This document shows, in pieces, positions 1-14,842 of a DNA stretch of 64,000 bases. This stretch comes from a virus. The notes beneath the pieces are model-generated. The model did not search any database. It saw only the letters and a program-made list of their open reading frames with translations, and had not been told where the DNA came from. Numbering within the stretch: position 1 is the stretch's first letter; the number at the start of each line of letters is the position of its first letter. Position numbers and translations under genes: made by a program. The DNA lies in IMG/VR virus record IMGVR_UViG_3300045988_110279; one strand, given 5' to 3'.

Positions 1-111
1 ATAGTCTCCACGAATCATACGGAATTTTATAATATCCTGTTTTGGAATTAACTTTTTCTGTATATTTGTCAAGAATTGGGTCAATATCTTTAGAGCTAAG
101 GCGATACATAA

Positions 112-648
112 TTATACCTTCAATCTCTTGTTAAGTTCAGCAATTAGCTCCTCATTAGTAAAGTCACTAAGAGACTTCTCATTTTTATCAAGAATGAAAG
201 CCGACGCGAGCCCGCCGCTGCCGCCGTAGTTGCCGTGGCCCGCAGACCCACCGATGCCGACAATGCAAACGCAGTTCGAGGCCCAATTATCTTTCTCAGG
301 AGATCCCCAAGGGGTAACAAGCCAGAACCAATTCTTGATATGAGGAGTTAGAATATGATTATACTTGCGATATTCGTCGAAGGTAAGGGGTGCAACAGCG
401 GTATTTAGCGAACCATATCCTTTATATCCATCCATTGCAGTCAGGTCGACATCGCGCGGAATAGCCTTAATGCCAGTTTTCTTAAGCCAAGCCTCAGCGC
501 CCTTCCGCAATGTACTCTCTTTATAGTTATTAGAATTTCCAAAGATAAAATCAATTCCTACTTCAAGTGCAATTACGAAGGGGTTACCATCAATTTCGTC
601 AAGAACAAGGCACTTTACTCCATTTACAGTAATAGTCTCACCAATCAT
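112..648 (-). CDS. C-type-lectin-fold protein; remote DGR target carrying VR2 near its C-terminus
   Basis: Track ORF 112..714; likely start MIGETITVNG with RBS AAAGGAAG. The C-terminus ...NCVCIVGIGGSAGHGNYGGSGGLASAF is encoded by a GC-rich segment homologous to the DGR TR. Confidence 0.6.
   Translation of the reverse strand: MIGETITVNGVKCLVLDEIDGNPFVIALEVGIDFIFGNSNNYKESTLRKGAEAWLKKTGIKAIPRDVDLTAMDGYKGYGSLNTAVAPLTFDEYRKYNHILTPHIKNWFWLVTPWGSPEKDNWASNCVCIVGIGGSAGHGNYGGSGGLASAFILDKNEKSLSDFTNEELIAELNKRLKV
201..280 (-). repeat. DGR variable repeat VR2 (remote copy)
   Basis: About 80 bp homologous to the TR at 59341-59440. Almost all mismatches fall at TR adenines on the coding (-) strand, and the GGGCTCGCG-type 3' end is shared. 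Confidence 0.7.
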
Positions 649-664
649 ATTTCTCTTCCTTTCT

Positions 665-856
665 TTAATTAGAATACTCTTCAACCATTTGAGAAAGCAT
701 ATCAATTTCATCATCTGTTATGTTATCAAAAAAGATACCGTATTTTGCGCAGATTTGAGCTTGCTGAGATGGATCGTTCATAGTCCATGGCTTTGAAGCC
801 AATTCTCGAGCAGCCAGTTCAAAAGCGCCAGTGTATGCGAAAAATGACATATCCAT
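665..856 (-). CDS. hypothetical protein
   Basis: Track ORF with GGAGG RBS and TAA stop. Confidence 0.5.
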   Translation of the reverse strand: MDMSFFAYTGAFELAARELASKPWTMNDPSQQAQICAKYGIFFDNITDDEIDMLSQMVEEYSN

Positions 857-859
857 ATT

Positions 860-1294
860 TTATACCTCCTCTACAGAATCAAACTCATGAATTAAGATTG
901 CTCCATTGCTGATTTTTTCTGCGCAAATGATGTGTTTAATTTCATATTTATTTTCATCGGGACAGTAAACAATATGTCCACTTTTTAGCAAGGAAAGAAA
1001 GTCACTTTGATAGTAAGTACGACCTCCGAACTCGTTGCAAATTTTAAGGCGAATTTTATATCCTTCATCAACAGAATAGAGATCTCTTACATTATTATCT
1101 ACTTCGCATAATCGCCAAGTTGGGTCTCCATTATTAATGCTGACTCCAAGAACCGGAATAGGACTATAAGTTTCTTGAATAGCGAAGAATTTAGCTCTTT
1201 TGAGTTGGTCTGTATCAGAAAAGCCGAGGAACTCGCAGATTCTTACAGTGGAGTTCTTATATCCTTCTGATTTAATCAGTTCACTAATCTTCAT
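860..1294 (-). CDS. hypothetical protein
   Basis: Track ORF with RBS AAAGGAAG and TAA stop. Confidence 0.55.
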   Translation of the reverse strand: MKISELIKSEGYKNSTVRICEFLGFSDTDQLKRAKFFAIQETYSPIPVLGVSINNGDPTWRLCEVDNNVRDLYSVDEGYKIRLKICNEFGGRTYYQSDFLSLLKSGHIVYCPDENKYEIKHIICAEKISNGAILIHEFDSVEEV

Positions 1295-1351
1295 AACTTT
1301 TACTTCCTTTCCTTAACTTTCTATATATATTATATAATAATTTTATAAAAA

Positions 1352-1381
1352 AATAAAGACGCTCTTTTAAGAGCGTCTTTA
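1352..1381. terminator. hairpin terminator
   Basis: aaagacgctctt-ttaa-gagcgtcttt perfect stem flanked by A/T runs. Confidence 0.6.
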
Positions 1382-1524
1382 TTTTACTCAAGGTCGATTA
1401 CATAATTCTCTTGGATAAATGAATCTTCTGGAATATAGATGGTGTATTCAACAGACCGAGGTCCAAGTAAGAAATTTAAAACTGGGTTTTTGAAACGGAT
1501 TTTATTTTCTTCTATGTATGGGTC

Positions 1525-1890
1525 ATCATTTGTGTTCTTGATATAAGACTAATTTGCTTCAATAGATTTAGCAGTTATACCTTTATCTGTTTGATATAAG
1601 AATGAATAATAAAGCCCATCCTCTGTATAGTAACGACCTACATAGGAACTAAAATTATCATTTAAAGCAGTAATAGAATATGTTTGAGTGGTTTTCGCAG
1701 AATAGGTTGCGGGTTCAACAAAAATAACAATACCACAAATTATAAACATAATTAAGAAAGCGACGAATGCTGAAAGCACAACTCCGACAATGGTAGAGAA
1801 TAGATATTCTACAAAAGAGTCACAGTCTTTATAGAATATTATAAGAGATGTAACCATGAATAATATAAAGAACCCAATAGCTAGTGGCAT
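1525..1890 (-). CDS. membrane protein
   Basis: Track ORF 1549..1890 is hydrophobic. Its stop is TAG, so under recoding it extends 8 codons to a TGA near 1525. Confidence 0.45.
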
Positions 1891-1991
1891 GAGTAAAACC
1901 TCTTTTCTTATTTATATAAATATATTACCATATTTTATTAAGATACGCAAGTAAATCTTATGGATTATAACGAACCGTCATAATTTCTCAC

Positions 1992-2030
1992 GGATGCGGG
2001 AATTTTTTAGGCAGAGAAATTGGCAATCCC
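1992..2030. promoter_or_regulatory. inverted repeat gcgggaatt...aatcccgc containing an AATTGGCAAT motif
   Basis: Stem of about 8 bp. It contains the reverse complement of the ATTGCCAATTT motif found upstream of the recombinase gene. Confidence 0.3.
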
Positions 2031-2150
2031 GCGTTTTAAAAACGATCGGAATATCCAAAAGAGGTAAAAAATTGAGGTAAAATTTCATATGTACGTAGAG
2101 GAAGTATATCATGATTTTGAGAAAATATTTAGTTATTGGGTAAAGTTAAT

Positions 2151-2179
2151 TTGTTTTTACCCTTTATTTTTTATATAAT
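2151..2179 (+). promoter_or_regulatory. candidate promoter for gene 2198
   Basis: TATAAT at 2174-2179 with a weak TTGTTT -35 element 17 bp upstream. Confidence 0.3.
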
Positions 2180-2197
2180 ATAAGGAGGTGATAGAAG

Positions 2198-2836
2198 ATG
2201 AAAGGAAATATATCAAAAAGATTTCCTGCTAATGTAACTCTTGATACCTAGACTTTTTTAAATGACAAAAAGATTGATGGAGAATTATATGCGTTATTTT
2301 AGGAATTATCGTATGTAGATAAAAATGGATAGACAGTGGTTTCAAAAGATGATGTTCCTTCGTAGAATAGTCTATGTGAGAAACTTGGTATAAAAACTCC
2401 AAAGACTTATCGAGCGCACAGAGATTATCTTATAGCTTAGGGTTATATAATTGATGATGAAGAAAATAGGTAGTATATTCTTCCTATGAAAGAAGATATT
2501 TTTTTTATGATTCCATTGTAGACTTTGAGATTTATAAATGATACTTTGAAGGAATAGGTAATCAAGGTTTACACATATTTAGGGCAAAGATGGAAATATA
2601 AAGAATCTTTAGGCACGGATGAAAAATATAGTTTTACTCTTAAGGAGATCGGTGAACATATAGGATTAAAAACAGAAGGAAGTTCAAGAAATTCTTAGAT
2701 TGTGACAAATGCGCTACTGTGTTTGTCAAAGCTTGGTCTTATTGAGTATGAAAATTATTATGATTAGAGTAATGGTAAACCCGTTCCTCGTATGAGATTA
2801 ATCTAGTTTAATTTGACTATTGAGCTGAATGGGTAA
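2198..2836 (+). CDS. helix-turn-helix protein, putative replication initiation/organizer; 11 in-frame TAG codons
   Basis: RBS AAGGAGGTG then ATG. A continuous 212-codon frame ends at TAA only if TAG is sense, and the translation is protein-like (KLGIKTPKTYRAHRDYLIA...). Confidence 0.5.
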
Positions 2837-2878
2837 TTTTATCTATCTACGAAAGGGTAATTTTATCTATTTACGAGA
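2831..2878. repeat. tandem 24-bp direct repeat (iteron-like)
   Basis: gggtaattttatctatctacgaaa / gggtaattttatctatttacgaga, two adjacent copies immediately after gene 2198. Confidence 0.6.
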
Positions 2879-2930
2879 GGTAAAAAATCATATTATATCT
2901 AAATAATATACTAAATAATTTATCTAAGGG

Positions 2931-2978
2931 ACTTCGATATTTCTTCGAGCTCCGCTCTCAGAATATCGAAGTCCCATG
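2931..2978. promoter_or_regulatory. long inverted repeat (14-bp stem)
   Basis: gggacttcgatatt...aatatcgaagtccc, upstream of gene 3008. Confidence 0.5.
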
Positions 2979-3007
2979 TGCCCGCAATTATAATGGAGGA
3001 TAAAAAT

Positions 3008-3430
3008 ATGGAAGTATTTAAACCAATTAAGGTAGAAAATTATCAATTCGTGAAAAATGGATTAAATTAGTATGAACCAGTATTAGTTTACTTTAAAGAT
3101 GATGATGAAGAAGAAGGCAAGGTATATTTTGTAAAGAATAAATTTGATGATAAGTTAGAAGAATGGATGGAAGAGAATTTAAAGGTAGAAGGAAGAAGTA
3201 GAGTTATAGTAGATAAATATCATAATAGGATAAGTATAGATGTTTTTACTCAAGATTTAGAGGACTCTATAACCGATTTAGAAAAACGAATTGAAAAGTT
3301 AGAAGAAGGTTTTAGAGAAATCGAATTGAAAAATCGAGATAAAAATGGAGAGATATATGATTTGGTTGGAAGGATAAGAGAGATAAATAGAACTGGATAG
3401 AGATATAGATTATCTTTATATGAAGATTGA
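3008..3430 (+). CDS. hypothetical coiled-coil protein (recoded)
   Basis: RBS GGAGGA then ATG. In frame with track ORF 3167..3400. TAGs at 3068 and 3398 are read through to a TGA. Confidence 0.4.
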
Positions 3431-3564
3431 AAGAAATTAAAGGAAATTAAAAGGAGTTTATAAAATGGTGGAGTTGGGTGCCGATCGGGTCTAGGTATGA
3501 ACCATCACAACACTCGTCACAACGATCGTAAACCTAGCCTTCCGCGATTATAATATATATAAAA

Positions 3565-3590
3565 AGGAGAGAAGCTATAATACTTCTCTC
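3565..3590. terminator. bidirectional hairpin terminator
   Basis: ggagagaag-ctataatac-ttctctcc between convergent genes. Confidence 0.55.
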
Positions 3591-3616
3591 CTTTAATCTT
3601 TTTCCTCTTGTTTATC

Positions 3617-4060
3617 TTACTTCAAATGTCTCAAAAACTCCATGATATTGTCCTCATCAGTCTTAGCCTTATTCATACTACCTGCGAGAGCATCAGAAAT
3701 AGAGTCAACAGCAATGTCAATTACTTCATCAAGACTCTTTGCATTGACTACTCGAGCGGAAGTCTTAGCAGTTACAGTCATAGCTTGCATAAACTGCTTA
3801 ATATCATTTGCTGTCCACTTAGGATTGCTCTTGCTATAAACCAGCGCAGCTACACGACCAACGTCATCCTCAGTGAGAGACAAATCATCAACATTGCCAT
3901 AAAAAGTAGACTCAATCTCATCCAGAAGAATATCGCGTTCACGGTCTGCGGCGTTAGCCTCGGAGATTCTATTCATAGCATCGGTAAATGCCTTTGCAAT
4001 CTCCTCCTGAGTAGAACCATTCTGCATTGCATCACGAATCATAATCTCATAACTATTCAT
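3617..4060 (-). CDS. hypothetical protein
   Basis: Track ORF with protein-like composition and TAA stop. The overlapping plus-strand ORF is low-complexity and rejected. Confidence 0.55.
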   Translation of the reverse strand: MNSYEIMIRDAMQNGSTQEEIAKAFTDAMNRISEANAADRERDILLDEIESTFYGNVDDLSLTEDDVGRVAALVYSKSNPKWTANDIKQFMQAMTVTAKTSARVVNAKSLDEVIDIAVDSISDALAGSMNKAKTDEDNIMEFLRHLK

Positions 4061-4127
4061 AATAAGTTCTTTTAGTTAGAAAAAGCGTTATGATGCTTCT
4101 TAAACTAAAATCCTCCTTTTCTTTATC

Positions 4128-4160
4128 TTATGTATATATTATATTATATTTTTTATATAT
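4128..4160 (-). promoter_or_regulatory. candidate promoter for 3617..4060
   Basis: Minus strand reads TCGACA-17-TATAAT. Confidence 0.4.
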
Positions 4161-4239
4161 TGTCGAACCGATCGGGTCTAGATAAAAAGATCGCTTTAAC
4201 GGAATCCCGCGGAAAAGATTTTTACTTTTTAAATTGTTA

Positions 4240-4605
4240 GCAACATTTTTGCTATTGTTTGCTGTATCTTTAATAGTTTTAATTCTGTGAATATCAAGAA
4301 ATTTTGAGAAAAACGAGGCATTTTTTGCTTATTTTTAAGTAAATTTGTTAGAAAAATGCGCATTTTTGCAAGATTTTAGAGGTTTTTCGTTATATTTTGC
4401 GATAACAAGAGGTAAAGTCATGCGGGCCGATCAGTTTATCTAGCTAAAATCTCTATTTTTGAGCTATTTTTATCATAAAATCGTGTTAAACCGATCGGTT
4501 CCGCGAAAGAAATCTCTGGTCGTATTTGTTTTTCATAGGTATATCTTTGCTATTGCTAGTTGTATTTTAGAAAATTTTGGTACTGTGAATACTTGACAAT
4601 TTTAA
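4240..4605. repeat. pair of degenerate ~60-bp direct repeats
   Basis: tgctattgtttgctgtatctttaatagttttaattctgtgaatatcaag (about 4240) versus tgctattgctagttgtattttagaaaattttggtactgtgaatacttgac (about 4545). Confidence 0.5.
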
Positions 4606-4707
4606 GATTTTTATTATAAAAAATTGGACGAGAGAGCCAATATTGCTGGACCGATCGGAACTAGATAAAGGAAGAAGTAAAGTAGGGCCGATCGGTGTTT
4701 GGAAGAG

Positions 4708-4782
4708 GGCGTTATGAATTTTGGGAAAATCGCTATGAAGTTGCGTTATGGCCAAGTTGCTATGAAAATTTTGCGCTATGGT
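4708..4782. repeat. phased GC(G)TTATG / GCTATG(A/G) short repeats (5 copies, ~11-14 bp phasing)
   Basis: gcgttatgaa, cgctatgaag, gcgttatggc, gctatgaaaa, gcgctatggt. Confidence 0.5.
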
Positions 4783-4847
4783 CCGATCGGGGAAATTCGG
4801 GCCGAGTCGCCCGCGATCGGCCCGTCGAGTTTAGGAAATATAAAATA

Positions 4848-4871
4848 AAAAGAGAGGCCGAAGCCTCTCTT
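4848..4871 (-). terminator. intrinsic terminator
   Basis: agagaggc-cgaa-gcctctct followed by a T-run on the minus strand. Confidence 0.6.
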
Positions 4872-4874
4872 TTC

Positions 4875-5126
4875 TTAATCCTCGTTTTCTAAATTGATTT
4901 CTCCTATACAGTTACACCGTATCGGAGATTCAAAAACAAATTCATCTCCATATCCAACGATAGTTATTTCTCCATACTTTTTACAATACTCGTCTATCTT
5001 TTCGATTAGACTATTCCAATCTTTCTCTTGCGCTTTTTGTTTTCTAAGTGCCACTTCTTTATAGGCGGTAGCACTCAACCATTGCAACTCCTCATCATTC
5101 AGTTTGTTGAAATCAATATCAACCAT
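4875..5126 (-). CDS. hypothetical protein
   Basis: Track ORF, TAA stop. Confidence 0.55.
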   Translation of the reverse strand: MVDIDFNKLNDEELQWLSATAYKEVALRKQKAQEKDWNSLIEKIDEYCKKYGEITIVGYGDEFVFESPIRCNCIGEINLENED

Positions 5127-5143
5127 CTAAAAATCTCCTTTCT

Positions 5144-5596
5144 TTAATGAAAAATCTCAGCCGGAATTTCACTAAAAACTTGCTTAAATTGCTCCATAGT
5201 CAGTTCTCTTGCCGCTCTCTCAACCCTTTCTTTTGCCCAGTCGCAAACCATTTCGCAGGAAATAAATTTAATTTCATACCCAGTAATGGCGTAGATTTTA
5301 GGCGACCACTCAAATCTTTTTGTATCAGCCATATTTCCAGTTAAAATCATATATTCGCCGGTGGCTTGATTTTCTTCTGACTGTTCAACCCAACATTGAA
5401 CTATATTTTCAACATAGTTTTTTCCAGTTTTAACCGCTTCTTTTTCGGTTCGAGCATTGATTAAAAAGGTAGAAAGCATAATATCATCACGAAATGATAC
5501 CGTAAATTTATAAGGCTTCTTAGAGAAGATACCCTTGCGACCTTCACACCAAAAGGTAACTTGAAAATTAACACGAAATTGTTTTAAGCTTTCCAT
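5144..5596 (-). CDS. hypothetical protein
   Basis: Track ORF, TAA stop. Confidence 0.55.
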   Translation of the reverse strand: MESLKQFRVNFQVTFWCEGRKGIFSKKPYKFTVSFRDDIMLSTFLINARTEKEAVKTGKNYVENIVQCWVEQSEENQATGEYMILTGNMADTKRFEWSPKIYAITGYEIKFISCEMVCDWAKERVERAARELTMEQFKQVFSEIPAEIFH

Positions 5597-5768
5597 TTCT
5601 TTTATCTCCTGTAATAATCTTCAATATAAAATTTCATTTCTTTTTCTGTACTTTGTCTTAATACCGAATAAATAGTGGAAATGTCAAGGCAAGTTCTTTT
5701 AATTAAGAAACGAATGATAGAGTTTTTAAGTTTATTCATCATTTCTTTTACCTCCCTTCCATGGTTAA

Positions 5769-5797
5769 ATGATACCACATTTTCGGGAGAAAGTCAA
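5769..5797 (-). promoter_or_regulatory. sigma-A-type promoter TTGACT-17-TGgTATCAT
   Basis: Minus-strand -35/-10 with exact 17-bp spacer upstream of gene 5144..5596. Confidence 0.6.
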
Positions 5798-5806
5798 GCT
5801 GTCAAG

Positions 5807-5840
5807 TTGCACAAATTTTCAATTCAAAATTGTTGAAAAT
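5807..5840. promoter_or_regulatory. inverted-repeat operator TTGCACAA...TTGTTGAA
   Basis: One member of the repeated TTGCACAA-N-TTGTGCAA family, located just upstream of a -35 element. Confidence 0.5.
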
Positions 5841-5859
5841 GACAATAGAAGAAAAATTC

Positions 5860-5928
5860 GGACCGCGGCGCACGCAAGCGGTCCGCTCAAAATTTTGCAT
5901 AAAAAAATCTCCCCATAAGGGGAGATTT
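5860..5928 (-). terminator. tandem intrinsic terminators (GC hairpin 5860-5884; hairpin 5905-5928)
   Basis: Both stems are followed by T-runs on the minus strand. They lie downstream of gene 5933..6283. Confidence 0.6.
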
Positions 5929-5932
5929 TTCT

Positions 5933-6283
5933 TTAGTTGAGAATTATTGGATATGCCTTGCGAATAACCACCGTAACCATGGCCGGGGGAGTGTCGCACA
6001 AGAAACGATCATTTCTGATAAAACGACCAATTCCCATATTCTGCCACAAAGTCCGGTTTACATCCTCGTATCGTAGGGTATTATACTTGGAAAGTTTGAT
6101 ATGCCAATCATAGATAAAGGAACCATCTTCCGGCATGGTGTAATCTGGCGCCCGCTTATAATTTCTCGTATGCTCTGCGGCTCTGCGTTCAAGGTCATTT
6201 GTCGTACCAATCTTGAGAATATAGCGCCCCTTTTTGTCGATATAATGTCCGACATATAGGAACTCTTTTCCCCTTGTCTGCAA
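5933..6283 (-). CDS. GIY-YIG family nuclease
   Basis: FLYVGHY...YILKIGTTNDLERRAAEH matches the GIY...YIG...R...H(E) motif order. Confidence 0.55.
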   Translation of the reverse strand: MQTRGKEFLYVGHYIDKKGRYILKIGTTNDLERRAAEHTRNYKRAPDYTMPEDGSFIYDWHIKLSKYNTLRYEDVNRTLWQNMGIGRFIRNDRFLCDTPPAMVTVVIRKAYPIILN

Positions 6284-6339
6284 ACTAACTATAACTTGCC
6301 TCTTTTCTGGTAGGGCCGGGGTAGGCCGACCCTACCCCG

Positions 6340-6657
6340 TTATTTCTTCGGCTTACGCTTTTGCACAAGCGTCAACTCGAAACTATCCCCACCAATAGAA
6401 AACGCAATCTGTCTTTCCTTGTTAGTAATAGACAAGTCAGCGATAGAGAATTGACTGTTTTTTTCCAAAAACTCTGCCAATTCCGCAATTATACCGCCTT
6501 TCGTGGCGTTTGGCTTGCGTTGCCGTGTAGTGAACTTATATGCGGTTGGCTGTTTGCGCGTTCCAGCATGGGCAAACTTTTGAGCGATTTTCGCCTTTTC
6601 TGGCGGTAAATCGTATTCAGTCTTTTTATCAGCCTCTACCGCCTTATCATAGGCCAA
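6340..6657 (-). CDS. hypothetical protein
   Basis: Track ORF, TAA stop. GC hairpins flank it at 6302-6338 and 6762-6795. Confidence 0.5.
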   Translation of the reverse strand: MAYDKAVEADKKTEYDLPPEKAKIAQKFAHAGTRKQPTAYKFTTRQRKPNATKGGIIAELAEFLEKNSQFSIADLSITNKERQIAFSIGGDSFELTLVQKRKPKK

Positions 6658-6795
6658 TAAATCTGCCTCCTCTTCCGGCGTTAATTGCAGGGCTTTATAC
6701 CTTGCAATCCGTTCAGCGTCACTAATGCGACTGGATATAATATCACCCCCATATTATAAGTTAGGGCGGGGATTTTCACCCCGCCCTATACGGGG

Positions 6796-7206
6796 TTACG
6801 CCATCTTAAAGAGGGACTTGCCCTTCTTCTCCGTGCAGACTACTCGACCATCGAGTTTCAACTGCCGCACAAGAGCGGCGACCTTCTGGTTAGAATAGGC
6901 CGTCAGATCAGGAATAGCCTTAAAAATTTCCGTGCAGGTCACGCCATCGGTATCGGCGTCCAGACCAGCCAGATACTCCATAATCTGCTCCTTAAAGTTT
7001 TCGTTCTCCTGCTGGGTGGGAGTCAGCTTCTTGTCACCGCTGGAGCTATTCTTCTTACGCAGAAGCTCCAGCTCATGGTCAATGACAGTAATGGCCACCT
7101 CGATGGTAGTGCCATACTTTACCTCGCCGTCAGTCAAGAGGGCCTTAATGTCCTCAAAGCGCTGGGCCTTGGTAATGCGGATTTTCTTCTCGTCCATAAT
7201 ATACAT
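6796..7206 (-). CDS. hypothetical protein (possible C-terminal winged-helix)
   Basis: Track ORF. C-terminus reads KVAALVRQLKLDGRV. Confidence 0.5.
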   Translation of the reverse strand: MYIMDEKKIRITKAQRFEDIKALLTDGEVKYGTTIEVAITVIDHELELLRKKNSSSGDKKLTPTQQENENFKEQIMEYLAGLDADTDGVTCTEIFKAIPDLTAYSNQKVAALVRQLKLDGRVVCTEKKGKSLFKMA

Positions 7207-7245
7207 CCTTTCTGGTTTTTAGGACTGTCCTTGTCCTTTGATTAT

Positions 7246-7446
7246 ATTGTACCACACTATTTGGTACTTGTCAAGAGGTTTTTCAAACTTTTTTCAAGAA
7301 CTTTTGCTCTTTACTTGTTTGCCCTCTCAACCTCCCTTATAGTGTAACACACTTTGGAAAGTTTGTCAAGCCCTTTTTATTTAATTTTCAAGGTGCATTG
7401 CCTTGTTTTCTGTACTTATTATAGCACATCTTCAAAGGCTTGTCAA
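7246..7446 (-). promoter_or_regulatory. three tandem leftward promoters (P1 7246-7274, P2 7341-7369, P3 7418-7446)
   Basis: P1 is TTGACA-17-TACAAT, P2 is TTGACA-17-TACACT, P3 is TTGACA-17-TATAAT. All are on the minus strand. A 15-codon leader ORF with an AGGGAGG RBS lies between P2 and P1. Confidence 0.55.
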
Positions 7447-7553
7447 GAGATTCTTGAAAGATTTTTGAGAAATTCGCTGTCGCTGTCTGCCGTTCGTCTC
7501 TCTCACTTTCTGAATGTATTTTACCACAAGCAAAAGCAGATTGCAAGCGTCAA

Positions 7554-7632
7554 ATTGCACAAAAAATCTGAATTTTGGGAGAAAGTTTTTGTGCAGAATT
7601 TTACACAAAACGGAGCTGAAATTTTTGTGCAA
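7554..7632. promoter_or_regulatory. operator-like inverted repeats TTGCACAA / TTGTGCAG / TTGTGCAA
   Basis: Three half-sites of the same family. Confidence 0.5.
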
Positions 7633-7651
7633 CATTTACAAAGAAAAACTC

Positions 7652-7718
7652 GGGTCGCGCCGTTCCTGCGCGACCCGCTCAAATTTTGTATAAAAAAAGA
7701 AGGGCCGAAGCCCTTCTT
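7652..7718 (-). terminator. tandem intrinsic terminators
   Basis: gggtcgcgc...gcgcgaccc and aagaagggc-cgaa-gcccttctt, each followed by a T-run on the minus strand. Confidence 0.6.
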
Positions 7719-7900
7719 AACAGAAAATACAGTTATCCAGAAAATCAAACAGGTGTTCATCCTCAATGGGAACATTTACCAGCATATTTCCATCTTCGTC
7801 AATATCATCATGACACCATCCCATACGCTCAATAATTTGAATTGCCATATAAACGGCATCTGCGCACAGAGAAGAGGTATATACAGTTTTTGTTACCATT
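7717..7900 (-). CDS. small hypothetical protein (60 aa)
   Basis: Internal start MVTKT with a GAGGAGG RBS, inside track ORF 7717..8052. Confidence 0.4.
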
Positions 7901-8092
7901 TTATTCCTCCTCGAAATCATCAACTCCATATTGTCTCTGATATTCGTCACAGTCGAACCATGGCTCACCCAAAGAGCAACAAAGTGATTCCGTGTCAAAA
8001 TCTGGGCAGATAGTATCATAGATTTGTTCTGGGTCCATGCCTTCCTCGGCATAATGCGGGCAACTCCACCGCATACAATGAACTTGAGACAT
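7901..8092 (-). CDS. small acidic Cys-rich protein
   Basis: Track ORF of 63 aa. Confidence 0.4.
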   Translation of the reverse strand: MSQVHCMRWSCPHYAEEGMDPEQIYDTICPDFDTESLCCSLGEPWFDCDEYQRQYGVDDFEEE

Positions 8093-8119
8093 ATTATTTC
8101 CTTTCTGTCGGGCGGGGCT

Positions 8120-8911
8120 TTAAGCCCCTACCCGGATAGTTGGAATTGAACGCATACTTGCGGAAAGTTGACGCTGAAAATCTGTCATAGGTGGAAACTC
8201 TCTCTTATTCTCATACAGGGCCTTTCTCATGGGCTTATGCTGACGCATACAATACCACATGATTTCCGCCTCAATGAGAACATCCTCAAGCCCCGTATGA
8301 CTTTCTTCAAAATCGGTATTGCCAGAAATAAACCGCCACACGATTTCCGCAGTCTTACGAGGAACGCCATTGGCCTGGACATATCCGTTTTCCTGACAGA
8401 ATTTCTTATAAGTGGGCATATTGCAGATAACATCCTGTGTCATCTTCATAATGTCCCAGATTTCCACACTATCAAACGGGAACCAGTAGCGGAACTTGGA
8501 GCAAGTGACCCATCGTTGAGTGACCCGCAGAGCGTTATCGTCAAACCGGGCATTATAAGCAGCTACCTCTTTAATCCCGTATCGCTCGATGGTATCAAGC
8601 ATAGCCTGCCGGATTTCATAAGTTGTAGCCATCTTACGAGTGCCGGCCCGCAATTCTTCGACATAGCGGGGGATTTTCCAATTATAATAGGCCGTCCGCA
8701 TGAGATCCCGCTCATCGTTGAAAATGTCCCTATTTACAAAACTGGCAGTTTCATAAATATTGCCCTTGGTATCCACTACCGCCCATCCGCAATCATAGAC
8801 AAGAACGCAACTCATATCCATGCGGGCTTTGCCGTTTTCGTCAGTTTCAGTCAGTGTGTTAGCAGTTTCAGTATCAACCACCAAAACATAGTGTCTACGC
8901 TTATCAATCAT
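8120..8911 (-). CDS. DEDDh 3'-5' exonuclease (DnaQ/RNase T-like)
   Basis: Exo I motif VVDTETAN, Exo II motif AYNARFDDNAL and Exo III motif HTGLEDVLIEAEI. Confidence 0.75.
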   Translation of the reverse strand: MIDKRRHYVLVVDTETANTLTETDENGKARMDMSCVLVYDCGWAVVDTKGNIYETASFVNRDIFNDERDLMRTAYYNWKIPRYVEELRAGTRKMATTYEIRQAMLDTIERYGIKEVAAYNARFDDNALRVTQRWVTCSKFRYWFPFDSVEIWDIMKMTQDVICNMPTYKKFCQENGYVQANGVPRKTAEIVWRFISGNTDFEESHTGLEDVLIEAEIMWYCMRQHKPMRKALYENKREFPPMTDFQRQLSASMRSIPTIRVGA

Positions 8912-8943
8912 AATCTTTGACTTCCTTTCCTCTTGTTGAGTTT

Positions 8944-8972
8944 ATTATAGCACATATCATGCTTGATGTCAA
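8944..8972 (-). promoter_or_regulatory. promoter TTGACA-17-TATAAT
   Basis: Exact consensus on the minus strand upstream of the exonuclease gene. Confidence 0.65.
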
Positions 8973-9137
8973 GAGGAAAAGGAAATTTTTATTGCGATTT
9001 ACTGCAAGCTACTGGGCATTAGAACGGCCTATTCTAACGGCGTTCACTCGACTTACGACACAATATAAATTTACTTCCTTTACTTTCTAAGAGTTCGCGA
9101 CCTCTTGATTTCTTGGCCTTCCCCTCTTGACAAATAT

Positions 9138-9166
9138 ATAATACCATACTTTCGGGATAATTACAA
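9138..9166 (-). promoter_or_regulatory. promoter TTGTAA-17-TATTAT
   Basis: Cassette promoter. A short leader ORF with an AAAGGAAG RBS follows it. Confidence 0.4.
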
Positions 9167-9175
9167 GATGGCAAA

Positions 9176-9207
9176 TTGCACAAAATTTGCAAGCCAAAAT
9201 TGTGCAA
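9176..9207. promoter_or_regulatory. inverted repeat TTGCACAA-N16-TTGTGCAA
   Basis: Best-formed copy of the operator family. Confidence 0.55.
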
Positions 9208-9228
9208 CATCGACAAAAACAAAAACTC

Positions 9229-9300
9229 GGCTCGCCGCGTGCGCCAGCGAGCCGCCCAAACGATATTAAAGAGTAAAAATAAGAGGGCCGAAGCCCTCTT
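9229..9300 (-). terminator. tandem intrinsic terminators
   Basis: ggctcgc...gcgagcc and aagagggc-cgaa-gccctctt with T-runs on the minus strand. Confidence 0.6.
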
Positions 9301-9487
9301 AATATCCAAGATATTCTTTATTAATAATCTCGTCAAGCCAATAGCTCAAATCTTCAAGCGAAATATCGTCATCAATTTCATTGTCGGCCATAACCTGATC
9401 AATTTGACCAATGAGAATGGACGCATTTTTCAATACTTGTCGCTCTTCCTCGCTGAGGATAAGCCTATTAACCTTTCTAATCTTCAT
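9299..9487 (-). CDS. small acidic hypothetical protein
   Basis: Track ORF of 62 aa ending at the terminator. Confidence 0.5.
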   Translation of the reverse strand: MKIRKVNRLILSEEERQVLKNASILIGQIDQVMADNEIDDDISLEDLSYWLDEIINKEYLGY

Positions 9488-9527
9488 TTACAAAACTTCC
9501 TTTCTTATTTTAAGATTGACTGGTGGA

Positions 9528-9992
9528 TTACTCTACCAGTCGCCATAAGGCCGTAGGTAAATCTTCATGCGGTTCGATTGTTTCTCCTAAATGCCAACCA
9601 TCCCGCACACTTTTATTATCGTCAATCAAAATAAAATTGCTAACCCCCGGCTCGAAGTATTTTCGCACACAGTTTGCTTTTGTTGTGCCATATTCCACAA
9701 GGTGGACTTTATGTGCGGGGAAGTTGTATTTTGCAAGCCAAGTGCGCTTTGCATCACGGACAGCGGTTTTATATGAGTTAGAACTGTCTTTTGCAAGCCA
9801 ACTGATAACCCGAATTTCCCAGCCCTGCTCAATAAGTTTATTGAGAACGGTATTCAATTCTTCCATATCGCAAAGAGGTTTAGCGACTGTATATGGATAG
9901 GGGTTTTCATTCATTAAATCTTTCAGCCATCCATCTACGCCGTACAGGTCAGCGATTGTTCCATCCATATCAAAGCAGAGCATCTTTTTCAT
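9528..9992 (-). CDS. HAD-superfamily 5'-nucleotidase-like phosphatase
   Basis: N-terminal CFDMDGTIADL (the DxDGT motif I). Confidence 0.55.
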   Translation of the reverse strand: MKKMLCFDMDGTIADLYGVDGWLKDLMNENPYPYTVAKPLCDMEELNTVLNKLIEQGWEIRVISWLAKDSSNSYKTAVRDAKRTWLAKYNFPAHKVHLVEYGTTKANCVRKYFEPGVSNFILIDDNKSVRDGWHLGETIEPHEDLPTALWRLVE

Positions 9993-10024
9993 TTTGATTT
10001 ACTTCCTTTCTTTAGGTTGATTAA

Positions 10025-10053
10025 AGTATATCAGATTTCGGGATAGAAAACAA
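10025..10053 (-). promoter_or_regulatory. promoter TTGTTT-17-TATACT
   Basis: Cassette promoter upstream of gene 9528..9992. Confidence 0.4.
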
Positions 10054-10061
10054 GAGGCAAA

Positions 10062-10093
10062 CTGCACAAAATTTCGGCTGGAAAATTGTGCAA
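10062..10093. promoter_or_regulatory. inverted repeat CTGCACAA...TTGTGCAA
   Basis: Operator family copy. Confidence 0.5.
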
Positions 10094-10114
10094 CTTCTAC
10101 AAAAGAGAAAATTC

Positions 10115-10193
10115 GGCGCGCCACGCACGTTAGCGCGCCGCCGAGAAGCCTATTCAAAAAATGGGATAAAAAAGAGGGCCGAAGCCCTCTTTT
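10115..10193 (-). terminator. tandem intrinsic terminators
   Basis: ggcgcgc...gcgcgcc and aagagggc-cgaa-gccctctt. Confidence 0.6.
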
Positions 10194-10653
10194 ATCTTTC
10201 ACATATATTTGCAAGAAATCTTGCAGAAAGTTTAACCATGTCATGGACAGATTCTTCGTTATTGCTATTTTTATAGCAAATAAAACCAACCTGGTCGCCA
10301 TTCACAAGAATTGGTGTAATAAACATACTTTCCCATTTTGTCGCCGAACTGCGAATATCAATCCAGTCATCGGGAACTCTTGTAATTCCAAAGGAACGCG
10401 GCCCGCATAAAATTCCATCATTGTCAAAAATAGCCGCGGCGATTCCGTTAGATGAAAGGGCATTTTGCATTTGTTTAGCGTAAGAGGAAAATTCTCCCAT
10501 TATAGAATATTTCTTAAAAACTACGCCGCCATCTTCTTCAAGAAAAATCTCTAATGGGTCGCCTTCTCTAATATGAAGGCTTCTACGGATTTCCTTTGGA
10601 ATTACTATCCGGCCCAAATCATCAATACGGCGCACAATTCCAGTAGCTTTCAT
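10192..10653 (-). CDS. AbrB/SpoVT-family transcriptional regulator (N-terminal swapped-hairpin domain plus C-terminal GAF-like domain)
   Basis: MKATGIVRRIDDLGRIVIPKEIRRSLHIREGDPLEIF matches the AbrB/SpoVT N-domain. Confidence 0.75.
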   Translation of the reverse strand: MKATGIVRRIDDLGRIVIPKEIRRSLHIREGDPLEIFLEEDGGVVFKKYSIMGEFSSYAKQMQNALSSNGIAAAIFDNDGILCGPRSFGITRVPDDWIDIRSSATKWESMFITPILVNGDQVGFICYKNSNNEESVHDMVKLSARFLANICER

Positions 10654-10705
10654 TTTTATCTGCGGGAGTGCAAGATTTATAGTCTTGCACTCCCTTCCTC
10701 CATTC

Positions 10706-11098
10706 TTAATCCAGTTCTTTCAACATCCGTTCGAGGTCAGCTTTAGTACCACCCAACTCAAGCGTAAGAATAATTTCCGTTACGGCATTTTTCTCCCAGT
10801 CGCTAACTTCCCGCATGGCCTTTTTCTTCTCGTTCTCCATAGCGGGGTAAATACAATCCTGGCAAGCCTCTACCAGCCGGTCATTATATCTGCGGAAACT
10901 CATCCCCTTGTTTTTAACCTCCGAAAGAAGTTCGTCGTTAAGGGCTTTTACCGCCTGCTTAACTTTCTCCTGCATGATTTTACACTCTGTCTCATAAGCG
11001 GAAAAGGTTTCATGGACAGCCTGCCTCTTGATTTCAGCCTTTACTCCAACTTCCTTTTCAATATACTCCCGAACAACCTTACTAACACGCATTTCCAA
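10706..11098 (-). CDS. hypothetical protein
   Basis: Track ORF. Confidence 0.5.
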   Translation of the reverse strand: MEMRVSKVVREYIEKEVGVKAEIKRQAVHETFSAYETECKIMQEKVKQAVKALNDELLSEVKNKGMSFRRYNDRLVEACQDCIYPAMENEKKKAMREVSDWEKNAVTEIILTLELGGTKADLERMLKELD

Positions 11099-11144
11099 AA
11101 CTTCCTTTCTTAATTTTAATTTTTATTTATCGGGGTCGCCCCTT

Positions 11145-11180
11145 CCATGGTCTTATTGTACCATAGTTGGGGCGATTTGT
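11145..11180 (-). promoter_or_regulatory. promoter TTGACA-17-TACAAT
   Basis: Minus strand reads ggggTTGACAaatcgccccaactatggTACAAT. Confidence 0.6.
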
Positions 11181-11187
11181 CAACCCC

Positions 11188-11340
11188 TTACATCAAAGTT
11201 TTTGCAAGATACGCAAACATTAAAATCTCCGCCGCAAACATGATTTCAAGTCCTATGCAATCTCTTTCAATAGCGGCTACAAATTGCCATACCAGACATA
11301 GAACAAAAGCAATCAGAATTATCATGGTAAAAGTTGTCAT
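11188..11340 (-). CDS. small membrane protein (~50 aa)
   Basis: Internal start MTTFTMIILIAF with a GGGGTGAG RBS. Confidence 0.4.
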   Translation of the reverse strand: MTTFTMIILIAFVLCLVWQFVAAIERDCIGLEIMFAAEILMFAYLAKTLM

Positions 11341-11344
11341 ATAC

Positions 11345-11602
11345 TCACCCCGCAAAGGAAACTTCCGCAAAGTTGATATTGAAACGCTCCCATTCACTTT
11401 CCATACCTAACATCATATCATGGAAAAGGTCATCACGATTTTCATATCCATCTTCTTCCAGAATAGCCTCCCATTCTCCATCGTCATATTGATTTTCCAG
11501 ATAATCCAAAGCAGACTTGCGGGCGGCGATGGTATTAGACGCTACGCAGATAGGTTTATCGTCGTATCCGTCCGTGACCAAAATCATTTTCTTTTCTTCC
11601 AT
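11345..11602 (-). CDS. acidic hypothetical protein
   Basis: Start MEEKKM with RBS AAAGGAAAG, TGA stop. Confidence 0.45.
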   Translation of the reverse strand: MEEKKMILVTDGYDDKPICVASNTIAARKSALDYLENQYDDGEWEAILEEDGYENRDDLFHDMMLGMESEWERFNINFAEVSFAG

Positions 11603-11655
11603 GATTTTTTCTTTCCTTTCTTTCGAGGTGTTTCTGTCTCCCTCTTTCTGATAAT

Positions 11656-11684
11656 AATATACCACAGGCAAAGCAGAAAGTCAA
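11656..11684 (-). promoter_or_regulatory. promoter TTGACT-17-TATATT
   Basis: Cassette promoter. Confidence 0.45.
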
Positions 11685-11713
11685 GCGATTTTAGGAAAAA
11701 ATCTTTCGTCAGA

Positions 11714-11745
11714 TTGCACAACAATTCGAGCCTAAAATTGTGCAA
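11714..11745. promoter_or_regulatory. inverted repeat ATTGCACAA...TTGTGCAA
   Basis: Operator family copy. Confidence 0.5.
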
Positions 11746-11767
11746 ATTGCCTCTTGATAAAAAATTC

Positions 11768-11835
11768 CGGCCGCGCCTGTGGTGCACGGCCGGGCGAACA
11801 AATAAAAAAAAAGAACCTCCTGAATTTCAGGAGGT
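11768..11835 (-). terminator. tandem intrinsic terminators
   Basis: cggccg...cggccg and acctcctg-aattt-caggaggt. Confidence 0.55.
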
Positions 11836-11875
11836 CATTAATTTCTGCATACCAACAACTCCCTTTCTTTTGAGA

Positions 11876-12106
11876 AGTCAATCGGCATTTTCAACAATCT
11901 TTAATCCGTTTGCTTGGATAATTTTCATAGATTCTTCAAGCGAGGAATCAACCGATCCGCAGTCAATACAGATATATTTTCTACCATCTTTTACCATAGT
12001 AGTGAAATAGTATTCCTAACCGGAAGTAAGTCCCATTTGTTCACGCAAACGAATCGGAATCATAATTCTACCACTTGAATCTAATTTGCGAGAGAAAGTA
12101 GTTTCT
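11876..12106 (-). CDS. AbrB/MazE-like swapped-hairpin DNA-binding protein with one in-frame TAG
   Basis: MQETTFSRKLDSSGRIMIPIRLREQMGLTSG(TAG)EYYF... The frame is complete only if TAG is sense. No obvious SD. Confidence 0.4.
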
Positions 12107-12175
12107 TGCATTTTGATAAATAAATTCTAGTGACCTAGGCTCGTGCGAAAAACGACTCCATCACGGGAATCGCCG

Positions 12176-12313
12176 ATTTAGAACAATCGGAAGGAACATT
12201 TACCACTCGCAAGGCATTTTCTGGCAGAACTGAGACATAGGACAATTTTACAAGAATCCTAGTTCAAACAGAACTCCAAAATAACCGCAAGCGCTTTCAG
12301 CACTTCTAAGGTC
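12176..12313 (-). CDS. small Cys-rich protein (45 aa, one TAG)
   Basis: RBS AAAGGAG 8 nt before the ATG. Confidence 0.3.
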
Positions 12314-12516
12314 ATTAGAAAAACTCCTTTCTTTATTTTTCTATAATTATTATAATATATTTTTTTGAAAAAATCAATAGGGCCGGCATTACGCCAGCCC
12401 TAATCTCTGCAACCAAACCAGATGGTATTTACCAATGTGAAGTAGAACTGTGCCATATCCCTTATCCGTCCAGACAGTGGAGCCGATAGGATATGTGTGC
12501 GGTAAACGCTCAATAC

Positions 12517-12732
12517 TCACTTTAGTTCCACCTCCTCGAAAGCTCCAATTTTTAGCAGATAATTATATAAGGCTCTATCTTGCTTGTCACCGGTATTAAA
12601 ATCAAGTGTACGAACACAGCCGGTAACATTGGAATTGAGAGGATGACCCAAACACCAACCAGCCATATTACAAATTGTGTTTCCAAACTCCGCAGATTTT
12701 TCTACACTTTCAAATTTAATAACAGCAATCAT
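12517..12732 (-). CDS. hypothetical protein
   Basis: Track ORF of 71 aa. Confidence 0.45.
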   Translation of the reverse strand: MIAVIKFESVEKSAEFGNTICNMAGWCLGHPLNSNVTGCVRTLDFNTGDKQDRALYNYLLKIGAFEEVELK

Positions 12733-12755
12733 ATTTATTCCTCCTTTTTATCATG

Positions 12756-12786
12756 GGGAGTGGAGATTTATGGCCTCCACTCCCGC
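12756..12786. promoter_or_regulatory. intergenic hairpin gggagtggag...ctccactccc
   Basis: Perfect 10-bp stem between two minus-strand genes, immediately 5' of an RBS. Confidence 0.5.
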
Positions 12787-12794
12787 AAGTTTTC

Positions 12795-13034
12795 TTAACC
12801 ATCTACATAAATGATTAAATTGTTATCTCTTGCCTCAATGCCGGTTACCTGAAGTCCCAGAACCCATTCCTTAGATACCTCGATTACGTCTCCTCCCAGA
12901 GTTATTCTACCATCAGGTAATTCGTGGTAATGAGCTTGGGTATTCTTATTGATAATTTCGAATCCCTCCCCGTCAAAGAACATAGTATCTTCTGCAAGCG
13001 GAGAAAGTAACCAAGCAACCATATCTAAAGTCAT
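12795..13034 (-). CDS. hypothetical protein (79 aa)
   Basis: Start MTLDMVAW with RBS AAAGGAAG. Confidence 0.45.
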   Translation of the reverse strand: MTLDMVAWLLSPLAEDTMFFDGEGFEIINKNTQAHYHELPDGRITLGGDVIEVSKEWVLGLQVTGIEARDNNLIIYVDG

Positions 13035-13086
13035 TTTTTTACTTCCTTTCAAATTCTTTTTGTGGCCTGTCCCTTTGGACAAGTAT

Positions 13087-13115
13087 ATAATAACACATGG
13101 CAAAAGGAATGTCAA
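13087..13115 (-). promoter_or_regulatory. promoter TTGACA-17-TATTAT
   Basis: Cassette promoter. Confidence 0.55.
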
Positions 13116-13143
13116 GTAATTTCGGGAGAAAAACTTTCGTCGA

Positions 13144-13180
13144 ATTGCACAGACTTTCGGTCATATAATTGTTGAAATTG
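13144..13180. promoter_or_regulatory. degenerate operator inverted repeat ATTGCACAG...ATTGTTGAAATTG
   Basis: Family member. Confidence 0.4.
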
Positions 13181-13198
13181 CCGAATAAATAAAAATTC

Positions 13199-13287
13199 GG
13201 GCCGCGGCGCACGCTGGCGGCCCGGCGAAAAGTCAATATGGAAAAGTGCATAAAAATGACTGGCAATCTTTGTGTAGATTGCCAGTC
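13199..13287 (-). terminator. tandem intrinsic terminators
   Basis: gggccgc...gcggccc and gactggcaatc-tttgtgtag-attgccagtc, both with T-runs on the minus strand. Confidence 0.6.
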
Positions 13288-13300
13288 AAGTATTATTCCT

Positions 13301-13534
13301 TTACAGCTCCATGGTTTCCATGAGATAGCCCGTGCCCATCGGCACCTCCCGCAGATTGCTGGGACTTATACGCAACTTATATTTCCTATTGATTTTATTC
13401 GCCGCACTTGTCTTATCTCTTGCTTGGACAATTACTGGTATATGGAGTTTATTCAGAGTGGGCTTATTAAGACTGAAATATCCCATCTCTCTGCGCTTGC
13501 GGCCCATGGCGTCGATATAAGTCCCTCTATACAT
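13301..13534 (-). CDS. small basic protein
   Basis: Track ORF with AGGAGG RBS. Confidence 0.5.
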   Translation of the reverse strand: MYRGTYIDAMGRKRREMGYFSLNKPTLNKLHIPVIVQARDKTSAANKINRKYKLRISPSNLREVPMGTGYLMETMEL

Positions 13535-13547
13535 TTTTTTCCTCCTA

Positions 13548-13700
13548 TTATTTAGTCATGAGAACGAACATATTATATTCGCTGTGCTGTGGGTTTGGCT
13601 CACAGTTATCCGCCACTATATCAGCCCAACTAAGAACTGCCCAGAGTAGGAGAGCGGCACAAATGCCGCCTCCTATCCGCTTAATAATTCTCATTTCCAT
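13548..13700 (-). CDS. small membrane protein (50 aa)
   Basis: MEMRIIKRIGGGICAALLLWAVL with a GGAGG RBS. Confidence 0.35.
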   Translation of the reverse strand: MEMRIIKRIGGGICAALLLWAVLSWADIVADNCEPNPQHSEYNMFVLMTK

Positions 13701-13993
13701 TTCTTTGCCTCCTGTTCTTTAACCCATTCAGTACCGATTGTATCTCCGACCATAGCAATCTTATATTCGTCTTCGCTTGCAATTCTGGTATGCAGATTGC
13801 TATTGATAAACTTTCTATTGATATAAGCCCAGTGTGGCATATAGGCCACTCGCATGGCATTAAAAGCATCCAGGTCTAAGATGATGCCGTCCTCTACCTC
13901 TGCGGAACACACATTCATCTTATACCGCAAAAGTTTAATAAATTCACGCTTTCTAAAAGTAGGCCCAACGAACCACTTAATATAATTGTTCAT
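13691..13993 (-). CDS. hypothetical protein
   Basis: Track ORF with RBS GGGGAGAAAGG. Confidence 0.5.
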   Translation of the reverse strand: MNNYIKWFVGPTFRKREFIKLLRYKMNVCSAEVEDGIILDLDAFNAMRVAYMPHWAYINRKFINSNLHTRIASEDEYKIAMVGDTIGTEWVKEQEAKKWK

Positions 13994-14038
13994 AGTCTTT
14001 TATCCTTTCTCCCCGTATAGCCGTTAGGTCAGCTTCTT

Positions 14039-14185
14039 TTTAATCTACGATTTCTCCACTGGATAAATCTACAATCCAATGATTGGGATTGACTATCTCG
14101 TGACTGGCTTTCCATCTTGCCATTGAAAGGGTGGATGGTTCATAATAGCGCATTTTCTCATTGGCTAAAACCTGTAATTGATACA
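14039..14185 (-). CDS. small hypothetical protein (48 aa)
   Basis: RBS GAAAGGGG 7 nt before the ATG. Confidence 0.3.
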
Positions 14186-14260
14186 TATAGTATACCCCTT
14201 TCTTTTAATTATTATAACCCTGCCTTGCCTTGTGTTTTGCAAGGCAGGGTTTATAAACTG

Positions 14261-14634
14261 TTATCCTCTAATTTCTTCTTCTTGGGTCTTTGTCGCCCAA
14301 TCAAAAGAGGTACGAATATCGGAAGGTCTGCGGAATTGCTCTGCTTCGGCCTCTGTCCCGCCTAATGCCATAGCATAGGCTTTCCAGTCAACCGTTCCTT
14401 TTGCGGTAGTTTCTTTATATACCACCGCTTTCGCCTTACCCTGCATTTGTACCGTGCCATATAGATAACTTGTTTTGTCCGTAGCCTTAAAAGCCTTACC
14501 TAATCTGGAAAATAGCTCTTTAGCCTTAGCCTTAGCTGCTTTCTCCGCCGCCTCCGCCGCAGACTTAGCCATCTTAGCGGCCATATACTCCATAATAATG
14601 GCTCGATCTTCATTGGTAAAATCAATCTTTTTCA
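14261..14634 (-). CDS. hypothetical protein with Ala/Lys-rich coiled coil (possibly Gam-like)
   Basis: Internal start MKKIDFTNEDR within track ORF 14261..14698. The family assignment is speculative. Confidence 0.4.
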
Positions 14635-14688
14635 TACTCTTTTGACTCCCTTTCTTTTTGTGGTGTGGTTCTCTTTTGTTCTGTCTGT

Positions 14689-14717
14689 ATTGTATCAAAC
14701 CTTTAGCAGTTTGTCAA
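14689..14717 (-). promoter_or_regulatory. promoter TTGACA-17-TACAAT
   Basis: Exact consensus on the minus strand. Confidence 0.65.
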
Positions 14718-14842
14718 TACCTTTTTTGAAATTTTTTAATTTTCAAAGTGCCGTGCTTTTGTCTCTGTCCTACTGGACAAGTCCAGTTTACCACCAAAAT
14801 GTTCACTTGTCAATAGTTTTTTTGAAATTTCTTTCTCTCTCT

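Follow-up and report, generated by a model that had tools for sequence, protein, structure and literature searches.

A variable repeat 59 kb from its template repeat: very probably a second target of the single diversity-generating retroelement of a large TAG-recoding phage

The use of two target genes by one diversity-generating retroelement (DGR) has already been described in gut phages. In Toutatisvirus, a second variable repeat (VR) lies in a DUF6273 gene 17,480 nt from the template repeat (TR) (bioRxiv 10.1101/2024.10.15.618418), and Lelie and CP11 carry a large and a small DUF6273 target (PMC11792537). The gut phages nd4 and nd12 have two DUF6273/C-type lectin (C-lec) targets, a large 'tentaclin' containing immunoglobulin (Ig) domains and a small single-domain protein (tgt2) flanked by helices (Baykov et al. 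2023, PMC10743442); for Brigit, the Hoc-like target alone is named in the main text of Cornuault et al. 2018 (PMC5883640). In zeta crAss-like phages, the DGRs combine amber-suppressed reverse transcriptase (RT) genes with C-lec targets, some with Ig-like domains (PMC12386605). Among phage-associated DGRs at large, many targets are non-adjacent, nearly all of them within 50 kb, and the term 'remote' is reserved for targets more than 100 kb away, which are cellular, as in Treponema denticola (Wu et al. 2018, PMC5758913). Here we analysed 64,000 nucleotides of viral DNA (the window; IMG/VR record IMGVR_UViG_3300045988_110279), which carry a DGR with an adjacent target repeat, VR1, and a small gene holding a further repeat, VR2, some 59 kb away. 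We conclude that VR2 is very probably a genuine, non-adjacent second target of the phage's single DGR. What is new is the setting: a large lineage that reads TAG as glutamine and has no close deposited relative, the 59-kb spacing, and a target located in a TAG-free early block.

VR2, its template repeat and its natural variation

A repeat search of the window revealed a family of direct repeats with three copies, all on the minus strand (198-300, 59338-59440 and 60061-60163). The middle copy, rich in AAC codons, is the TR (59334-59440); VR1 (60057-60163) forms the 3' end of the adjacent target gene; and VR2 (194-280) is homologous to TR positions 59334-59420 in an ungapped comparison. The earlier note on this DNA, made by a model from the letters and their open reading frames (ORFs), had matched nucleotides 201-280 to the TR with substitutions confined to TR adenines. 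We confirmed the match, which runs without gaps from 280 down to about 194, and the bias: in the 67 nt ahead of the 3' boundary, 28 of which are adenines in the TR, all 19 mismatches fall at TR adenines (hypergeometric p = 2.9e-10) and the non-A positions are identical throughout (39/39, 100%). The mismatches are thus adenine-specific rather than randomly distributed. Across 85 nt, 21 of 23 mismatches are at A and 52 of 54 non-A sites match, and the substitutions over the 87-nt span comprise 15 A>G, 4 A>T and 2 A>C. VR1 shows the same bias against the TR (23 of 25 mismatches at TR adenines), and the two VRs differ from each other at 18 positions. When both strands of the window were scanned with non-A positions alone scored, only the TR, VR1 and VR2 were returned, and no fourth TR-like copy was found.

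The three copies end in the same GC-rich sequence, GGGCTCGCG(C/T)CGG, a common 3' end that the earlier note had also pointed out. Immediately after it, VR1 and VR2 read CTTTC and the TR reads ATTAG; by sequence, this divergent continuation corresponds to the relationship, typical of DGRs, between the element for initiation of mutagenic homing (IMH) and its TR counterpart (IMH*). The IMH-like boundary of VR2 (GGGCTCGCGTCGG then CTTTC; 196-213, minus strand) carries a private C>T at window position 204 (TR GCGCCGG, VR2 GCGTCGG), so the single C/T difference at the 3' edge listed in the earlier note is real. At the other end, the homology of VR2 to the TR begins at CTCG, 20-22 nt further into the TR than that of VR1. 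VR2 has a GC content of 66.7% and stands out as an island within a 35% GC genome.

VR2 lies in a gene of 178 codons (112-648, minus strand) encoding a standalone DUF6273/C-type-lectin-like domain followed by a C-terminal helix. A small lectin-fold protein had been predicted from the letters, and the AlphaFold model (predicted local distance difference test score, pLDDT, 95.9), with its C-type-lectin and DUF6273 matches, agrees with this: the modelled fold is C-type-lectin-like and resembles a solved DUF6273 domain. Matches in BFVD are DUF6273 proteins. The protein itself has no Pfam match at E <= 0.1, and thus none to DUF6273 (PF19789) above the gathering score; PF19789 is matched by 22 of 60 family representatives and by some close homologues. 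It also matches phrog_9958 (1e-27) and, at 29% identity (E = 9e-6), the DUF6273 domain of the VR1 target. A search of 1.84 billion representative proteins returned 569 relatives, many of them 170-200 residues long and matched over their full length. The peptide NCVCIVGIGGSAGHGNYGGSGGLASAF, which the earlier note had assigned to VR2, is correct; it is not the extreme C terminus, since 27 residues still follow. In the model, the VR2-encoded segment comprises a beta-hairpin (strands 126-130 and 136-140) and a strand at 144-146, which places the VR in the C-terminal part of the DUF6273 domain as a predicted surface beta-hairpin.

We then compared the protein with homologues from other samples; all figures on VR2 variation given here are such between-sample comparisons. 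The homologue search gave 348 matches, the best 120 of which are 87-94% identical. Over 109 homologues of equal length, mean column entropy was 0.085 bits for residues 1-124, 1.38 for residues 125-152 and 0.04 for residues 153-178. The columns that vary (125, 126, 129, 131-133 and 137-145) match the A-containing TR codons exactly, and the peaks are lower at codons 141 and 144, which have a single A (109-123 homologues). The diversified block defined by these peaks and by the structure model (residues 125-145; 214-276, minus strand) coincides with the modelled hairpin and strand. With cluster members added, all VR peptides differ from one another among 123 near-identical homologues (123/123), and at the AAC-templated positions the amino acids found in these 123 sequences are precisely the 15 available from NNC codons. 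The 90%-identity cluster holding the VR2 protein has 573 distinct members. At the nucleotide level, the gene of one relative (L037) and that of the window have 2 differences in the 452 positions outside VR2; they disagree at 23 of the 31 A sites and at a single one of the 54 non-A sites, where the difference is the window's own C>T.

The template behaves differently from its copies. In close relatives, all of the 31 scored TR adenines are kept, and 29-30 are kept in a clade with about 77% RT identity, whereas the VRs of relatives keep only 8-18 of the scored adenines; conservation of the TR alongside variation of the VRs among related genomes is the pattern that one-way transfer would leave. 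Moreover, the TR, VR1 and VR2 of contig 080502 all read GGACTGGCGCCGG where the window has GGGCTCGCGCCGG. Searches with the RT and the TR found a single locus in each related contig, those of 144-148 kb among them, and a scan of IMG/VR for VR2-type 3' ends gave only five contigs, all already known. The suggestion that one DGR diversifies two proteins is borne out by the adenine-specific mismatches, the hypervariability at TR-adenine codons and the co-variation of the TR, VR1 and VR2.

The cassette next to the TR reads, on the minus strand, VR1 target gene, ORF at the Avd position, TR and RT. The VR1 target (60047-61804, minus strand; about 585 residues, with in-frame TAG and a putative TTG start) has Big_3 Ig-like domains and a C-terminal DUF6273 domain, with matches to Big_3 and DUF6273 (1e-10). 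The next ORF (59471-59965, minus strand) is small and basic, with 164 residues and one in-frame TAG, and occupies the position usual for Avd. The RT gene (57813-59031, minus strand), which has in-frame TAG and a 1-nt insertion, encodes 405 residues after repair, with RVT_1 and the motifs GSQTSQ and YMDD; its nearest relatives are DGR RTs, those of nd12 (35% identity, the closest deposited), Roseburia phage Shimadzu, FP_Toutatis and Lelie.

If the element works like DGRs that have been characterised, its TR (59334-59440) would be transcribed and copied by the RT into complementary DNA, with misincorporation opposite template adenines, and this copy would take the place of the matching stretch in a VR. 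The 3' anchor would be the GC-rich, IMH-like sequence that both VRs have in common, GGGCTCGCGCCGG and then CTTTC; the 5' side would be resolved through short homology, at the CTCG boundary in VR2. The outcome would be a rewritten beta-hairpin at residues 125-145 of the 178-residue protein, together with rewriting of the larger Ig-like and DUF6273 protein. The VR2 hairpin would then bind a ligand, and the element may be active in this genome today.

Competing explanations

Several observations weigh against VR2 being a working target of this DGR. Searches of Pfam, PHROGs, NCBIfam and PDB sequences detected no homology of the 164-residue ORF to Avd, and neither did BLASTP against the annotated Avd of FP_Brigit. 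Downstream of VR1 and VR2, no shared or significant hairpin or cruciform of the BPP-1 kind was found in DNA folds of the 96 nt at and after the IMH (z = -1.0 and -1.25). About 73 kb of the source contig lies beyond the window and record L001. An extra A in the run at 58683-58687 makes it five long (A5) and breaks the RT ORF. Finally, the C>T in the IMH replaces proline 149 with serine (P149S); 122 of the 123 homologues have proline at this position, the residue hardly varies in the wider family, and serine occurs in this sequence alone. The element may be inactive or decaying in the present genome, or these lesions may be assembly errors at 8x coverage.

The alternative that fares best takes these lesions at face value: VR2 would be a true target in the lineage, frozen in this genome by the A5 frameshift in the RT and by the mutated IMH. 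We regard this as possible, although on balance unlikely. The A5 run is private to the contig: seven close relatives have A4 at the same site, a more divergent eighth is intact and in frame, and A5 is the only indel in 4.5 kb aligned to two relatives (L005 and L006). P149S is likewise unique among the 123 homologues, and the exact VR2 protein occurs on three to four long contigs. However, an error in a homopolymer is possible at about 8x coverage, and one data set, assembled more than once, may underlie the contigs with the identical protein. An exact look-up recorded no frameshifted RT product on other contigs, and a metagenome scan permitting A4 or A5 returned A4 copies alone. This alternative is moreover compatible, for the lineage, with VR2 as a second target of the single DGR.

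The 73 kb of unseen contig leaves room for a second TR and RT serving VR2, which we consider very improbable. Each related contig, including those of 144-148 kb, has a single RT/TR locus, and VR2 is a perfect match to the window's own TR at the non-A sites of its variable part and co-varies with that TR in a relative; a second cassette was rejected on these grounds. Still less probable is that VR2 is the relic of an old duplication of the lectin domain, TR-like by descent and not rewritten. The two target domains are indeed distant paralogues, yet at 29% protein identity VR2 equals the TR at nearly all non-A sites over 85 nt, homologues with nearly identical flanks differ at most A sites, and non-A changes of the TR are mirrored in VR2; the co-variation and the restriction of variation to A sites led us to reject the relic. 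We give a negligible probability to the idea that faulty assembly produced VR2, either as a chimera or by putting a copy of VR1 in the wrong place. Assemblies do break at DGR repeats: VR1 is the end of contig 093451, 091188 opens 136 nt ahead of the Avd-position ORF, and the start of 084596 falls just upstream of the RT. However, the gene that contains VR2 in frame is another one than the VR1 target, is well conserved and shows no TR homology in its 5' flank, and VR2 differs from VR1 as described above. Many contigs longer than 140 kb, from different samples, carry this gene with its VR, and its distance from the RT is conserved (56-59 kb in IMG/VR contigs 080502, 084596 and 091188); this recurrence in independent contigs refutes the chimera for practical purposes. 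Taken together, the natural variation, the amino-acid repertoire, the co-variation and the single-cassette data exclude, as far as sequence allows, chance, a chimera, a relic paralogue and a second cassette, and leave VR2 as the second target of the one DGR.

Genome layout, TAG recoding and neighbouring genes

ENA contig ERZ826732 NODE_89 (147,132 bp, coverage about 8x) carries a gene for exactly the VR2 protein, and the window is the reverse complement of positions 64001-128000 of the 147,132-bp contig, hence internal. Many contigs bearing homologues top out at 141-149 kb, from which we estimate a genome of about 147-149 kb. Contig 093451 carries the VR2 gene at 24.4 kb and, in the same orientation, the VR1 target at 113-114 kb, which makes an arc of about 89.7 kb. 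The two arcs, 59 kb and about 88-90 kb, sum to about 149 kb, and the map is most simply circular or circularly permuted. The earlier note had expected a much shorter true distance on a circular genome; this is not the case, as 59 kb is already the short arc. Contig 084596 did not add to the evidence for circularity, as its other end has no TR, Avd-position ORF or VR1 target. The DGR region had no megablast match in INPHARED, indicating that no close relative has been deposited there.

The window is divided by its use of TAG. Genes from about 18.2 to 62 kb contain 271 in-frame TAG in 10,505 codons (about 2.6%; 17 late ORFs checked), and the early minus-strand ORFs from 112 to 17,191 contain none in 2,361 codons (16 checked). 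The TAG-bearing region (18169-62000) has its late genes on the plus strand and the DGR cassette at its late end on the minus strand; positions 1-17200 are TAG-free. In RT alignments, TAG positions align mostly with glutamine of relatives, indicating that the phage reads TAG as glutamine in its late genes; the recoding is code-15-like. TAG is found in the RT, the Avd-position ORF and the VR1 target, and not in the VR2 gene, for which a complete lack of TAG in 178 codons would, at the late-gene rate, have a probability of 0.0095. Scans of the window for tRNAs and with Rfam found nothing, so a suppressor tRNA, if there is one, is encoded outside it.

Alongside the VR2 gene, the early block codes for PARG, PTH2 and an AbrB/SpoVT-like protein. 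We recognised no structural genes in it, and the portal and virion proteins are in the TAG-containing block. The PTH2 peptidyl-tRNA hydrolase (1e-22) and the microbial-type poly(ADP-ribose) glycohydrolase, PARG (7e-26), lie at 15336-16525 and may have counter-defence or translation-related functions. Between early genes at 4793-13231, six to seven composite intergenic elements recur every 0.9-1.8 kb, each made of a palindromic TTGCACAA...TTGTGCAA motif and then a GC-rich hairpin with a T-run on the minus strand (families D1, D3, D4, D8 and D9); they look like repeated operator/promoter and terminator cassettes and have no Rfam match. An AT-rich motif, TATATATTATATAATAA..., occurs at intergenic module boundaries (1318-1357, 12338-12377, 18234-18273 and 63434-63473), one copy lying directly upstream of the operon with the VR2 gene, and may be a phage promoter consensus. 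Elsewhere, an ORF with in-frame TAG that runs off the end of the window (63555-64000) looks by its motif like a serine recombinase or resolvase. A perfect 33-nt direct repeat (46905-46937 and 47058-47090, 153 nt apart) within a late, probable tail gene of 1304 codons suggests an internal domain repeat.

The C-terminal helix of the VR2 protein (residues 165-177, LSDFTNEELIAELNKRL) is conserved in the family. The motif L-S-D-F-T-x-E-E-L-x-x-E-L-x-x-R follows the lectin domain across the small DUF6273 family (residues 152-178; window 112-195), and oligomerisation and docking are possible roles for the helix. The small targets FP_Brigit gp06 and FP_Toutatis gp24 have the same helix motif, and their genes lie in an early, regulatory or replication module. 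These features led us to a speculative reading, which we hold to be doubtful: that the small DUF6273 target is an early, probably cytoplasmic, hypervariable binder that is not part of the virion and acts, for example, against a variable host or competitor factor. It rests on the placement of the VR2 gene in the TAG-free block with PARG, PTH2 and the AbrB/SpoVT-like gene, when the RT, the Avd-position ORF and the first target need TAG read-through; on the early location of the Brigit and Toutatis counterparts; and on the common C-terminal helix (..T-E-E-L-x-x-E-L-x-x-R..) together with the lack of an obvious N-terminal signal peptide in the VR2 protein. If it were true, a DGR would diversify a non-structural phage function, and its two targets would be expressed at different stages of infection. 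The repeated occurrence of the small target among early genes suggests, without going further, that the default view of all phage DGR targets as virion adhesins may be questioned.

Comparison with known systems

The locus adds, from a large phage lineage with TAG read as glutamine, a well-supported case of one DGR with two targets; surveys restricted to the vicinity of the RT, or to the standard code, will miss such targets. With the DGR of Bordetella phage BPP-1 (Mtd) it shares adenine-specific transfer from TR to VR, a GC-rich IMH and a variable protein of C-type-lectin fold; in BPP-1 the only target is adjacent, Avd can be recognised, and a defined hairpin lies downstream of the VR. As in zeta crAss-like phages, the phage is a large gut phage and its RT ORF contains in-frame TAG, but those phages have several TR-VR pairs with decayed patterns, in contrast to the one clean TR and the distant early-module gene found here, and we obtained no evidence supporting membership of this phage in the crAss-like group. 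As in the survey of Wu et al. 2018, one TR has a target away from its cassette. The earlier note had called VR2 remote; in the terms of that survey it is 'non-adjacent', its 59 kb being slightly past 50 kb and still within a phage genome.

The closest parallels come from phages with a large and a small DUF6273 target. The cassettes of nd4 and nd12 contain both targets, and the tentaclin gene has its VR close to the 5' end, whereas here the small target is 59 kb off, in another module. FP_Brigit gp06 (203 residues) is 40% identical to the VR2 protein over residues 3-121, and its VR lies 41 kb from the TR and, in the part they share, differs from it only at A; the repeat loci of this phage (NC_047909.1, L072) are at 4373-4452 and 45,412-45,490. 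The VR of FP_Toutatis gp24, 37 kb from its TR, has 13 of 14 mismatches at A. The repeat loci of that phage (NC_047915.1, L075) are at 6933-7036 and 44,077-44,180, and its record annotates the TR itself as the coding sequence of a 'DUF6273 domain-containing protein' (gp80). Toutatisvirus and Faecalibacterium phage Lelie share with the window one TR and two VRs, a large adjacent Hoc-like Ig and DUF6273 target, a small non-adjacent standalone DUF6273 target, and the position of the VR at the C-terminal end of DUF6273 in both. They differ in being temperate, of about 54 kb and on the standard code, compared with about 147 kb, TAG read as glutamine in late genes and a 59-kb spacing here; the RTs are only about 30% identical, and this phage has no close INPHARED relative. 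The pairing of a large adjacent Ig and lectin target with a small distant lectin target is thus kept across unrelated gut phages: this lineage, Brigit, Toutatis and Lelie, and nd4 and nd12.
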